IMG/VR virus record: IMGVR_UViG_3300032030_000026
Coordinates: 51,074 to 115,073 of that record
Length of the DNA stretch: 64,000 nt
Reading direction: 5' to 3' (one strand)
From: a virus
Taxonomy: Duplodnaviria; Caudoviricetes
The number at the start of each line of letters is the position of its first letter. The stretch's first letter is position 1. The notes below the pieces were generated by a model. It had not been told where the DNA came from and ran no database searches. It was given only the letters and a program-made list of their open reading frames with translations. A program made the position numbers and the translations under genes. This document shows positions 1 to 64,000 of the stretch, piece by piece.

Positions 1-77
1 AAAAAATCCATCATATTTTCCTGGAATCTTTTTGAGAATCGGATTTGCTTATTTGTCAGTATAGAATTGATTAACAT
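1..77 (-). CDS. 5' end of a gene running off the left edge (MLINSILTNKQIRFSKRFQENMMDF...)
   Basis: ATG at 77 preceded by an AT-rich leader containing TTATTTTT; frame open to position 1. Confidence 0.45.
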   Translation of the reverse strand, partial: MLINSILTNKQIRFSKRFQENMMDF

Positions 78-224
78 ATCTCTTGATTTATGTTATAAAA
101 AATAAACCCGGATATGTGTGAGAATAAGATTATTCCTCCCGAATAAGATCTCTTAAACGAATGTCAATTTCTAAAGTGCCTACCGGAAAATCAACAATTT
201 CTTGAGGAGATGCTCCTTCTGTAA

Positions 225-557
225 TCATATATTCATTTCATTTATTGTCTCTATAAATTGATCCAATGAATCAACCATTATTGTTATACTTCTCAAGCCA
301 TCACCCTGATATACTCTTACATCCCACTCGGTAAGCTCTTTGAGTTCGGATCCATCCGAATTTGATATCCATCCATCCCCAGTGTATTCAATCTCTTTTT
401 TTATAGTCACCTGAGGAGTATCTACTCTTCTACCATTTACTATCATAGCATTTGGAGTAAACTTATCAATTTTTACGTGATATCCCGCCCAGCAATCATC
501 TATTATCTCTCTAGACCAGCCGGACGTTTCAAGCCATTTGTATATATCTTCTATCAT
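225..557 (-). CDS. hypothetical protein
   Basis: 110-aa ORF in a minus-strand gene run, AT-rich start context. Confidence 0.7.
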   Translation of the reverse strand: MIEDIYKWLETSGWSREIIDDCWAGYHVKIDKFTPNAMIVNGRRVDTPQVTIKKEIEYTGDGWISNSDGSELKELTEWDVRVYQGDGLRSITIMVDSLDQFIETINEMNI

Positions 558-654
558 AAATGTAGTTTGAACGTATTTAAATATACAAATAAAGTGATAA
601 ATTTACATGTTAAAAAATTAAAAACCTGTTTTATAAAAAAAAAGAGGTTCGGCT

Positions 655-864
655 TTATAAGAACTCGAACCTCAGATCATTAGTATTGCTACCCACCTTT
701 GATATCTTTCCGTTGTCTAGAGTGACATAAAATATAGTTTCACCATTATGCCATTCTATATCGGAGACGAACCCGGAGACATCTATTGGTATGATACAGT
801 CCGCCACAAATCGGATTTTTTTATTTAAAAATTCTTTTTTAATAAAATCTTTCCAGCTTACCAT
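655..864 (-). CDS. hypothetical protein
   Basis: 69-aa ORF overlapping the stop of the upstream gene. Confidence 0.65.
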   Translation of the reverse strand: MVSWKDFIKKEFLNKKIRFVADCIIPIDVSGFVSDIEWHNGETIFYVTLDNGKISKVGSNTNDLRFEFL

Positions 865-59646: not shown

Positions 59647-59691
59647 AATAAAAATTTTTATTAAATAATATTGATTAAATTCAAAATCTGG

Positions 59692-61332
59692 TTATATATG
59701 TAATTGAGTCATTTTAACAAACAATCCGGTTTCCGAATCATTCACATTTAACAGAGAAATAAGGCTCGGAGTTATATCACTAACCGGACTGCTTACTTTA
59801 AAATATTCGCCGGTATGACTATTATCCGAGCTATCGGATATAACTTTAATTATAGTATATATATTAGTATCATCCACAACTTCCATTACTCCGGATCCGT
59901 ATTGTTCGGTTTCATCTTGATTCCAGGATGTGAATTCATATAATATATAATCTGGCTTGTATACTCTCTGTCCGGTATTCCGACCGTTTACAAACCAAAA
60001 CTCCACCGGTCCTTCATTAGGCATAACTATGCTCCGGACATAAGGTATATTAGTTCTATAATTTTTAAACATCGCCAGATGATCCTTCATAAGCTGATAA
60101 TTTTCGGATTGCAATCTCATATCAGTCCGAATATCTGCAATGGCATCGGCAATCCGACCCATGGCTCCGGCTACGGTTTCATAATCGTCTCCGCCGTCTA
60201 CCACCATAGCATATGTTGATGAATTTGGGGTGGCCACAACTCGTGTCATCAGTCTCACGGACCAACCGGTACCTTGTCCGAAAATATCTTCGTTAGATAC
60301 ATATTTGGTGACTTGATTACGAAACGGTATAGACCCGGAGGTATCTTGATTCCCGGTATCAAAATATTCCATATTAATAGGTCCGGTAAAATATATGCCA
60401 AGCGGTCTGTTATAATGCAAACATATCGGACCATCCTCTAGGTCTAAATCATTATATATATCATAGAATACAATTACGCAATTAAAAGAAAATTCTTTAT
60501 TTTCACCTATAACTTCTCCATTTTTCCGAGATTCCACAATATGAGAAGCGGAAGAATTATTCATAATAGGATATTTTTTTCCGGATAAATTATAAAATCC
60601 GTTTTCGGAACGAGGTTTTTCGTCAATTCCGCCATTATTAATAGGGTACGCCGCTTTTGTCCACCCCATTATTACTTGGCTATAATCATAATGATCCGGA
60701 TCTCCGGGATTTCCATGACTTAATGCAAAACTACTTATAGACCCATCTTTTCCTATAAAACCACTTATATCTGCCAATTCATAAGCCATTTCATTATCGG
60801 ACGGAGATATATAACAATATATATCATTATAATTCATACCATCGGCTTGCCGATTTGAATGAATATTGATATCACCAATGAATTTAAGCTCCTTAAATGT
60901 ATCATAAGATCCATCTAGTGTAGTCACGGATGTCCTGCCAATCAATCCCCAATCTTCTAATGACTTCCATAACAGCTGGGTGGCATATCCATCATTAAGA
61001 TTATCTTCATCCCAATACATCTCTTTATTGGTTACGTCATAACCCAAGATTTCCTTAGCCAAGCATACGGAATTTTCATAATAGGATTGAAGGTATTGAG
61101 AGAGATATCTATTTAAGTTTTGGTCTTGATAAGGATCTTCTTCCGAACCTTCATGCTCGGACATATATGTTTTAAAATTATCAATATTTAATTCTAACAC
61201 GGCAAATCTGGACGGCACTACACGATAAGATCCTTTTGCAGCATCTTCTTTAGTCAGATCATCCGTATATTGGGAGAACATGAAAAATTCTCCAGTATCA
61301 TTAGATAAAGGCTTAAAAATGTTACATCTCAT
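59692..61332 (-). CDS. putative virion (baseplate-type) structural protein
   Basis: probable start ATG 61332; C-terminal ~80-aa domain shared with 34989..38009. Confidence 0.55.
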
Positions 61333-61437
61333 AATATTGACTATAATATATTTCAAATAATACTTTTTCGACATAAGATAAATTCATATAATCTTGATTT
61401 TATCTCCTATTATTTCATTAGTATAAATTTATACATA

Positions 61438-64000
61438 ATGTACAAGACAGATCAATATATATCAAAGGTACTAAGAGTACCTACTCCATTTGAAAGTTAT
61501 AATGATGCCATAGCCTGGTTAGACAATTTTACCAAACATGAAATTGGTCAGATTGTGGAGGTTATGTATGATGATAAATCCGATAATAAAGACTCTATAC
61601 ATGCTATTGTTGCTATAGGAACCAAGAATTGGTATGAAGCGGCCGGGGGATCTAATAACGGCATGGATACGGCAGATCAAAATATCGCGGACTCGGAAAC
61701 TGAAACCTGTGGCAAATCATATTACGATATTATAGGTGGATCGCAGGTAGGTCCCGAAGGCCCGCAAGGTCCCGAAGGTCCGCAAGGTCCCGAAGGTCCG
61801 CAAGGTCCCGAAGGTCCTAAGGGTGAGAAGGGTGATAAAGGCGCCACCGGTCAAACCGGCCCAGTAGGTCCTAAGGGAGAGAAGGGTGATATCGGAGAAA
61901 AGGGTGAAAAAGGAGAGAAAGGCGACAAAGGAGATCGGGGATTGCAAGGTACTAAAGGCGAGAAGGGCGAGAAGGGCGAGGAGGGCGATAAAGGTGATCC
62001 CGGTGAAAAAGGAGAGAAAGGCGACAAAGGAGATCGTGGAGATCCCGGAGAACAAGGTGTGCAAGGCACTCAAGGTATGCAAGGAGCACAAGGAGAATCC
62101 GGAAATATATTTATAGTGCAAGGATTGCAAGGATTAAGAGGAACTTCCGGATATCCGGGTATGATATTAACCGGTATTGTAGGGGATGACGGATATGTTG
62201 GTATTCAAGGCATTCAAGGTACCGCAGGCGAGCTTGGTGTTACCGGTACACAAGGCACACAAGGTACGCAAGGTTTGCAAGGTGTACAAGGAGAAAGGGG
62301 TGTGCAGGGCTTACAAGGCACACAAGGTCCCGAAGGCACATCCGGTACACAAGGAATTCAAGGTACAGCCGGTACTCAAGGTATTATAGGTACCCAAGGA
62401 GAACCCGGAACCACAGGTACGCAAGGTTTGCAAGGCCTCCCCGGTATGCAAGGTATTCGAGGGCCATTTTCATCAATAGGATTACAAGGTACTACCGGAC
62501 GCACCGGTTATAAAGGCACACAAGGTATATCCGGCGCAAAAGGTGCACAAGGTGATGAAGGTCCTAGAGGTACACAAGGCTTACAAGGTCCTATGGGATT
62601 GTTTGGGTCATATGGTACGCAAGGTACACAAGGTACCACGGGTGAACAAGGATATCCGGGTACACAAGGTTTACAAGGTACTCAAGGTGAGGTTGGTGAG
62701 ATGGGATATAGAGGTACTCAAGGAGTTGGAGGAGATAGTGAACATGGTTATCAAGGTTATATGGGTGCACAAGGTACCGCGGGTGAAGCCGGTGAGATGG
62801 GTTATAGAGGTACTCAAGGTACTCAAGGTGAGGTTGGTGAGATGGGATATAGAGGTACGCAAGGTACGCAAGGCGTACAAGGCATAGATGGCATCAAAGG
62901 TCTGCAAGGCACACAAGGTACTCAAGGCGAGACCGGAGATCGGGGCGAACAAGGCACTCAAGGTATTCAAGGTGTACAAGGCATAGATGGCATCAAAGGC
63001 CTTCAAGGCACTCAAGGTATGCAAGGTGAGACCGGAGATCAAGGCGAGCAAGGCACACAAGGTACGCAAGGCGTACAAGGTGAGACTGGCATTAAAGGTT
63101 TACAAGGCACGCAAGGTACTCAAGGTGAGACCGGAGATCAAGGCGAACAGGGTACTCAAGGTACGCAAGGCGTACAAGGCATAGATGGCATCAAAGGTCT
63201 GCAAGGCACACAAGGTACGCAAGGCGAGACCGGAGATCGGGGCGAACAGGGTACTCAAGGTACGCAAGGCGTACAAGGCATAGATGGCATTAAAGGCCTT
63301 CAAGGCACTCAAGGTACTCAAGGCGAGACCGGAGATTCGGGCGAACAGGGTACTCAAGGTACGCAAGGCGTACAAGGCATAGATGGCATCAAAGGTCTGC
63401 AAGGCACACAAGGTACTCAAGGCGAGACCGGAGATCCGGGCGAACAGGGTACTCAAGGTACGCAAGGCGTACAAGGCATAGATGGCATCAAAGGTCTGCA
63501 AGGCACACAAGGTACGCAAGGCGAGACTGGAGATCAGGGCGAACAGGGTACTCAAGGCACACAAGGCGTGCAGGGTGAGACCGGCATTAAAGGTCTTCAA
63601 GGCACTCAAGGCACGCAAGGCGAGACCGGAGATCAGGGCGAACAAGGCATTCAAGGATCACAAGGATTGCAAGGAGTACAAGGCACTCAAGGTATTCAAG
63701 GTACAGCCGGTACTCAAGGAAATATTGGTGAGGAAGGAACTATTGGTGTTCAAGGTATTCAGGGCACTCAGGGAGAACTTGGTACAATCGGTATTCAAGG
63801 TACAGCCGGCACTCAAGGCACCGAAGGCCTGAACGGTCTGCAAGGCATTCAAGGATCACAAGGCGTACAAGGAGTACAAGGCACTCAAGGTATTCAAGGT
63901 ACAGCCGGTACTCAAGGCACCGAAGGATTAGAAGGTCTGCAAGGCATTCAAGGATTACAAGGCGTACAAGGCGTACAAGGCACTCAAGGTATTCAAGGTA
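61438..64000 (+). CDS. collagen-like fibre protein, runs off the right edge (absent from the ORF track)
   Basis: ATG 61438, ~100-aa globular N-terminus, then Gly-X-Y (GPQ/GEK/GTQ) with few interruptions and no stop to 64000. Confidence 0.9.
62860..63660 (+). repeat. 99-bp tandem repeat (~8 units, 33-aa collagen block [13 protein letters not shown]...[10 protein letters not shown])
   Basis: GG(C/T)GAGAC(C/T)GGAGAT recurs at 62926, 63025, 63124, 63223, 63322, 63421, 63520 and 63619. Confidence 0.85.

Follow-up and report, generated by a model that had tools for sequence, protein, structure and literature searches.

The closest described concept for the pattern reported here would appear, by analogy, to be the genome signature that phages share with their hosts and that is used for host prediction. 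Short duplex words can also accumulate because a DNA process is biased, with no function of the site involved: Dcm/Vsr very-short-patch (VSP) repair enriches CCWGG in Escherichia coli, and makes transitions only. In cyanobacteria, highly iterated palindromes or words (HIP1 and its alternates) are described, which the phage resembles in having a CCGG-containing word far above expectation in all frames. Phage 7-deazaguanine modification combines DpdA with preQ0 genes. Finally, transversion hotspots are described in which A:T>C:G or G:C>C:G changes are tied to immediate neighbours: Pol IV with 8-oxo-dGTP has an A>C hotspot at GXC (PMC12318082), whilst T>G following runs of G and G:C>C:G beside runs of C form others (PMC13250602). 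Here we analyse a 64 000-nucleotide stretch of a rumen phage of the Caudoviricetes (the window), which spans bases 51074-115073 of the linear IMG/VR record IMGVR_UViG_3300032030_000026 (G000; 115,073 bp; CheckV completeness ~57%). Throughout it the tetramer CCGG is strongly over-represented. On balance we favour the reading that this excess is a by-product of a context-specific substitution bias, acting at the DNA level in the phage lineage, and that it constitutes a genome signature, one probably linked to the host cell.

Like a phage-host signature, the pattern is genome-wide, strand-symmetric, frame-independent, present in spacers and absent from fresh imports, with related patterns in cellular genomes of the phylum to which the host probably belongs. 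It differs in being unusually strong, in being limited to one trinucleotide context and in having its own substitution spectrum. It would resemble the outcome of Dcm/Vsr repair in that a short duplex word is over-represented without site function, but the phage excess consists of transversions, CTGG is undepleted and no Vsr/methylase pair is linked to the phage. Unlike the HIP1 case there is no longer word: information stops one base to either side, and even the most frequent octamer, ATCCGGAT, has no more than 35 copies. The described transversion hotspots differ in context, since that of the phage is CXG rather than GXC and no run is needed. We found no description of a CXG-centred bias in the literature searched, an absence that is in itself no proof. 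The present analysis adds the confinement of the effect to the C_G centre (C_G being a site between a 5' C and a 3' G), the inverted transition:transversion ratio (Ts:Tv) and an imported gene that serves as a control.

CCGG occurs 439 times in the window, 5.6-fold above the 78.4 expected from base composition, and 805 times in the 115-kb record (151 expected; 5.3-fold). Both TCCG (466 copies in the window; 3.5-fold) and CGGA (480; 3.7-fold) follow it, whilst GGCC (1.14-fold in the record) and CGCG and GCGC (0.64-fold) show no enrichment. The CCGG copies are spread evenly, with 3-27 per 2 kb; the highest count falls in the last 2 kb of the window, inside a repeat-rich collagen-like gene. The first-pass annotation, which had reported the excess of all three words from the letters alone, was right on each, and its hand count over one short stretch (Table 1) was exact.

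The unit of the excess is the trinucleotide CCG/CGG and not the palindrome. A first-order Markov model predicts 133 CCGG in the window, and a second-order (trinucleotide) model predicts 416, giving an observed/expected ratio (O/E) of 1.05 (1.05-1.08 across window and record). Trinucleotide correction thus removes the CCGG excess, so that the signal sits in CCG/CGG (2.3-2.4-fold above zero order, 1.8-fold above Markov-1), the halves of CCGG combining almost independently. The called genes of the record contain 3689 CG dinucleotides; C precedes 43% of them and G follows 42%, and the two flanks are nearly independent. Around CCGG there is a mild preference for T at -1 and A at +4 and nothing further, so a longer motif was rejected; a search for one iterated word of at least 8 bases at 100-fold or more found none. 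We found no evidence for CCGG itself as a functional site. The earlier suggestion that CCGG is selected or protected did not survive trinucleotide correction, one half of what the first-pass annotation itself had named as refuting it, and nothing speaks for decoy or protein-binding sites at a density of one per 32 bp. What did hold up from that interpretation is that the excess is real, acts on the DNA itself and is unusual in this phage group; the palindrome as target did not.

The trinucleotide bias withstands a synonymous shuffle, under which the CCGG count falls to about half. Permuting synonymous codons within genes gave 362 ± 11 CCGG in the record against 696 observed (z 29.6), and 203 ± 10.5 against 401 in the window (z 18.8). 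CCGG is found in all three frames (327/696 in frame 1) and CCG and CGG are equally numerous on the coding strand. In short intergenic pieces outside the tRNA region CCGG reaches an O/E of 9.3, with C[C/G]G at 3.25 and C[A/T]G at 0.66, a bias as strong as or stronger than that in genes. Codon usage and codon pairs are ruled out by the shuffle together with the intergenic DNA; the bias is not translational and acts on DNA as such.

Four-fold degenerate sites locate the effect. In the window, C_G sites (n = 1230) hold C at.46, G at.34, T at.12 and A at.08, i.e. 80% C or G where other contexts reach 29-36%; the remaining sites (n = 5656) hold T at.35, A at.30, C at.18 and G at.16. The A+T share at C_G is 0.21 against 0.55-0.76 in the other eleven neighbour contexts, and C_G alone is abnormal: G_G, C_C and G_C have no effect. 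With the first or third letter free, neither CAG nor CTG is avoided. CAG makes up 0.37 of Gln codons (0.32 for AAG and 0.28 for GAG in their own pairs), CTG is 0.27 of CTN against 0.21 for GTG, and C before TG is favoured (.23 versus ~.11). The effect is therefore not avoidance of C[A/T]G, and C[A/T]G depletion is equal whatever the outer flanks. The bias is an enrichment of C[C/G]G, chiefly at its centre.

To read the substitution spectrum, relatives at a useful distance were found through fast-evolving proteins, and changes were counted at four-fold sites with conserved flanks. One strain (contigs L256-L262) covers 6.6-29.7 kb of the window at ~90.5% identity overall and 82-92% by block; contigs L253 and L255 cover 16.6-28.4 kb of the record at 88.7-89.1% DNA identity. 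The close relatives L253, L255, L256 and L263 are all biased (CCGG O/E 5.0-7.6), the range being 5.2-7.6 for the strains aligned here. The more distant pair G000/G001 was discarded for rates because its four-fold sites are saturated at ~77% identity. Between the window and L256, Ts:Tv was 41:68 at C_G sites and 345:88 at other four-fold sites (Fisher p 1.5e-16); pooled with L253, L254 and L255 it was 95:162 versus 612:176. Among strains 88-92% identical, Ts:Tv is thus 0.6 at C_G against 3.5-3.9 elsewhere, and contexts CC_H and D_GG behave normally. The exchangeabilities at C_G and at the remaining four-fold sites were.86 and.14 for A<>C,.61 and.12 for G<>T, and.26 and.12 for C<>G. After normalisation for base frequency A<>C is up ~6-fold, G<>T ~5-fold and C<>G ~2-fold, with transitions unchanged.

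Fixation bias, whether by selection or by biased conversion, shifts equilibrium frequencies; it cannot alter Ts:Tv among W<>S changes or raise C<>G exchange. Judged from these alignments, selection alone cannot yield the Ts:Tv of 0.6, and the inverted ratio with raised C<>G exchange, being beyond any fixation bias, points to a context-specific mutation or repair process. If stationarity is assumed, gains of A/T, which are mostly transitions, must equal losses, and exits from A/T at C_G would run ~5:1 through A:T>C:G transversions as against ~1:7 elsewhere, which would make A:T>C:G transversions at CTG/CAG ~35-fold favoured over transitions relative to other contexts.

One gene provides an internal control. 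Long genes have an A+T share of 0.00-0.41 at C_G sites, the sole exception being a 616-aa gene on the minus strand (Table 1). Its region is absent from the sister record G001, and the gene is 85-89.5% DNA-identical to genes of two phage contigs, L274 and L275, whose composition is the reverse of that described above: CCGG O/E 0.10-0.22, CCG/CGG 0.27-0.29 and A+T 0.94-0.95 at C_G sites. These Logan contigs are 13-15 kb long and carry a homologue of the 616-aa protein at 85-86% aa identity; their CpG ratio is 0.53-0.55, and their composition mirrors that of this phage inversely. By its identity and composition, the gene is a recent import from CCGG-poor phages, still in donor composition. The same cell translates this unbiased gene and its biased neighbours, and the bias therefore accrues during residence in the genome. 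On the short G000 branch of this gene the C_G centre has changed only twice, both times by a CTG>CGG transversion (2/38 A/T sites versus 0/516 elsewhere, p.0046).

Taken together, we suggest that a base pair flanked by a 5' C and a 3' G is driven to C:G or G:C, i.e. that C[A/T]G becomes C[C/G]G. Spacers and all reading frames, on either strand, would thereby gain CCG/CGG, and CCGG, TCCG and CGGA would rise as overlaps of CCG/CGG. The bias would accumulate with residence time, leaving recently imported DNA without it, and the transversion-rich spectrum would speak for mutation or repair, and not for site selection, as the origin of the bias.

The distribution of the trait among phages is patchy. 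Among 80 IMG/VR relatives, clear enrichment is seen only in the sister record (5.4-fold) and one other contig (3.3-fold); most have a CCGG O/E of 0-2, and in many CCGG is nearly lacking. Strongly CCGG-poor phages also occur in the group. With the G000 portal protein as the query, the A+T share at C_G four-fold sites is 0.20 in G000 itself, 0.28 in G001 (97% portal identity), 0.27 in G002 (67%), 0.56 in G003 (70%) and 0.67 in G005 (63%). Because biased and unbiased relatives lie at similar portal identity, and G000 and G002 have few genes in common, the trait does not follow phage kinship. A search for genes restricted to the biased phages G000, G001 and G002 returned four weak candidates, none informative. 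In cultured Bacteroides phages, CCGG is 2.45-fold enriched in B40-8, whilst crAss001 is almost without CpG; in bases 1-50000 of the latter (L277) CpG O/E is 0.03 and there are 8 CCGG in 50 kb.

Related patterns are found in cellular genomes. In most of 401 Bacteroidota genomes TCCGGA lies above its reversed control, reaching 1.41/kb compared with 1.45/kb in the phage, and low-G+C Bacteroidota have a CCGG O/E of 3-5. The synonymous-site pattern is shared by three genomes chosen for a high TCCGGA/TCCAGA ratio, 3 of the ~30 Bacteroidota sampled: the A+T share at C_G and at other sites is.30 and.68 in G248,.34 and.54 in G078, and.33 and.51 in G190. The genus of G248 is CCGG-rich throughout (2.4-5.6-fold). 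As some Bacteroidota share the pattern and the trait is off the phage phylogeny, we infer that the process belongs to the replication/repair environment of the host, probably a rumen Bacteroidota. Among named phages the closest by portal protein, none reaching 41% identity, are for the most part jumbo phages of Bacteroidota (Prevotella Lak, Tenacibaculum, Chryseobacterium), Sphingomonas phage PAU being also among them. A 28/30 spacer-like match in genome G442 was rejected, as no repeat array adjoins it, and a glycosyltransferase query against the genome contigs gave no match. The best match to the phage QueC is a 31-kb contig of a Bacteroidales metagenome-assembled genome, possibly a mis-binned phage.

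Several observations weigh against a host-linked substitution bias. None of the ~30 sampled genomes matches the phage tetranucleotide profile (best r ~0.7), CRISPR spacers in 101 genomes of the G248 family do not match the phage, and most of the CCGG-rich Bacteroidota sampled show no A/T depletion at C_G sites. In one bacterial pair, G440/G504 (92% identical), C_G sites differ 1.7-fold more but with the same Ts:Tv as other sites, although the pattern of this pair is weak. Over 25 kb of this CCGG-rich genus (loci L281 and L284-L296) four-fold differences are.305 between C and G and.181 otherwise, and the overall Ts:Tv is unusually low at 0.76. The outer letters of CCG/CGG are also favoured 2-4-fold, which a process confined to the centre leaves unexplained and which agrees with selection for the word. 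Among Pro codons CCG has a share of 0.24-0.34 even where the next base is not G (other NCG codons have.05-.11), and C is raised to.53 ahead of GG (otherwise.25-.30) and to.36 ahead of CG (otherwise.16-.19). The direction of change is deduced under stationarity, and only two polarised events, those in the imported gene, bear it out. Finally, a phage-encoded enzyme may lie in the missing ~43% of the genome.

Selection for CCG/CGG as a functional site, either as the target of a protective modification such as methylation or a 7-deazaguanine-type hypermodification or for an abundant DNA-binding protein, with high density favoured, is in our view unlikely but deserves the most serious hearing. It would account for the preference at all three letters when they are free. 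It would also fit a word accepted in either orientation, C<>G differences being found at 20% of the conserved C_G sites between G000 and G001, and the lack of restriction-site avoidance in the record is as expected of protected DNA (no near-absent 5- or 6-mer was found in G000 or G001). It cannot, however, turn a Ts:Tv of 3.5-3.9 into 0.6 or raise C<>G exchange, and cellular genomes show the same pattern. The first-pass annotation had proposed a search for C5/N4 methyltransferases; it came back empty, with no C5 (PF00145) or N4/N6 (PF01555) DNA methylase in the ~57% complete record and no C5 methylase in the five relatives G001-G005, one of which is a complete genome of 240 kb.

On the side of modification, the record encodes preQ0 (7-deazaguanine precursor) synthesis genes, namely FolE2, QueD, QueC and a QueE/NrdG-like radical-SAM protein, as in phages with DpdA. 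DpdA/TGT (PF01702) is absent from G000 and from all five relatives, complete genome included, although divergent DpdA families could escape the Pfam model. The cluster lies outside the window at G000 25903-33298 (L090:6903-14298), in the order QueD/PTPS, a 308-aa open reading frame (ORF), QueC, NrdG/QueE-like and FolE2, and is followed by a homing-endonuclease-like gene. The 308-aa ORF was considered as DpdA and rejected, its fold being a helical bundle and not a TGT barrel; the small family that includes it has known members in metagenome contigs only. Some 38 tRNA genes for nearly all amino acids, with two odd ARAGORN calls, follow at G000 ~35.0-44.4 kb (L090:15996 to L091:6351), and an RtcB RNA ligase is encoded at G000 8137-9468. 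All four queuosine tRNAs (Asp, Asn, His, Tyr) are among the tRNA genes. Because QueC occurs in all five relatives, biased or unbiased, DpdA/TGT is missing and queuosine tRNAs are present, the preQ0 genes lend no support to CCG/CGG modification, and more likely serve tRNA than a CCG/CGG-specific modification of DNA.

Somewhat less probable still is a sequence-specific phage or host enzyme that acts on the C-N-G centre and rewrites C[A/T]G to C[C/G]G. This could be a base-exchange, nicking or patch-repair activity, perhaps coupled to CCG/CGG modification. Were this true, an enzyme would write the short-word content of rumen phages, and would do so with the polarity reversed in lineages poor in CCGG.

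We regard VSP repair as improbable. Under this scheme a CCGG/CCG cytosine methylase, together with a host Vsr that turns T:G back to C:G, would overproduce the word. Vsr is encoded in 103 of the 401 Bacteroidota, among them G248 and G078, in which the pattern is strongest, and in G248 it lies ~1.1 kb from a C5 methylase gene; in the phage, transitions away from C/G are, as estimated from the counts, ~2-3-fold rarer at C_G sites. The distinctive changes are nevertheless transversions, a class foreign to VSP repair; CTGG shows no depletion (Markov-2 O/E 1.26), and the context has three letters rather than CCGG. Furthermore, G190 has the pattern with neither Vsr nor C5 methylase, whilst G017 and G027 have Vsr without the pattern. 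A search of the five relatives, G000 itself not being included, gave no true Vsr (PF03852): four had no more than sub-threshold domain matches, three of these being unbiased, and G001 had none.

That C[A/T]G-containing targets of restriction or defence (such as CCWGG, GCWGC, CTGCAG) are avoided, with C[C/G]G simply left over, is very improbable. CAG and CTG do stand at 0.71-0.72 of expectation in the record, and the relative G002 is a heavy site-avoider, but the preferences for CAG, CTG and C before TG, the indifference to outer flanks and the lack of near-absent words, all given above, run counter to it. The avoidance in G002 (L104-L111, 152 kb) is extreme: on both strands, CTAG occurs 0 times, CCAGA/TCTGG once, CTAAG/CTTAG once, CGACG 3 times, CTCAG 9, GGACC 11, CTTAAG 2 and GAATTC 16, and nothing alike is seen in G000 or G001. 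Scarcely credible is an artefact of codon usage, codon pairs, amino-acid content, repeats or assembly: many CCGG do lie at Ser/Thr/Ala/Pro-Gly codon junctions (frame 1) and the collagen-like repeats hold the highest count, but the shuffle, the intergenic excess, the even spread and independent assemblies of the phage's own strain from three other samples (99.9-100% identity) oppose it.

Features of the window are collected in Table 1. Besides the portal and terminase, other structural genes are encoded, and the 443-aa gene may be a highly expressed structural gene, although it matches no family. The window runs off its end within a collagen-like Gly-X-Y repeat protein (61438-63999), which contains a 99-bp tandem array (62854-63656; 8 copies, 89% alike). 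G000 and G001 both stop at collagen-like repeats, which probably broke both assemblies. A 462-aa protein (51324-52712, minus strand) has weak, sub-threshold matches to sigma-70 regions 2 and 4 and may be a phage sigma factor. A 716-aa protein (10499-12649, minus strand) joins Methyltransf_24 to a family-2/92 glycosyltransferase domain and is kept in close strains; its family indicates that it is not a DNA methylase. On one contig of the ~90.5% identical strain, a gene with IS605 OrfB/TnpB-like Pfam matches (L257:19509-19775) starts right past a baseplate-like gene, the window equivalent lying at ~29.7 kb. Phage DNA was present in a sheep-gut run. Comparing four bovine/gut runs with the window gave contigs mostly 85-95% identical, with ~1900 variant places. 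Exact-protein look-ups with window proteins matched the phage's own strain only, and a metagenome contig scan matched the sister record alone.

Table 1. Positions in the 64 000-nucleotide window of the features discussed
Feature	Position	Strand	Remarks
Genome-wide CCG/CGG excess, and thereby CCGG, TCCG, CGGA and TCCGGA	1..64000		genes and spacers
Region aligned to the ~90.5% identical strain (L256-L262)	6649..29716		source of the substitution spectrum
443-aa gene, G+C 48%	25682..27013	-	signature weakened: A+T 0.40 at C_G sites, CCGG O/E 1.6
Large terminase subunit, T4 type	30784..32586	-	signature normal, CCGG O/E 5.7
Stretch counted in the first-pass annotation	35161..36240		15 CCGG in 1080 bases, G+C 42%
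T4-type portal protein	45094..46929	+	signature normal, CCGG O/E 6.0; query for finding relatives
616-aa gene without the signature	56051..57901	-	CCGG O/E 0.6; A+T 0.83 at C_G four-fold sites

An excess of a palindrome in a phage need not, then, mean a functional site, and statistics corrected for trinucleotides and taken at synonymous sites should precede any such conclusion. Within a single family of rumen and gut phages CCG/CGG O/E spans a ~30-fold range, from ~0.06-0.3 to 2.9, and at least one lineage carries a context-specific, transversion-rich substitution pattern unlike any described signature of a polymerase or of repair. The enzyme behind the bias, once found, would explain a recurrent feature of gut-phage genomes and would sharpen k-mer host prediction.

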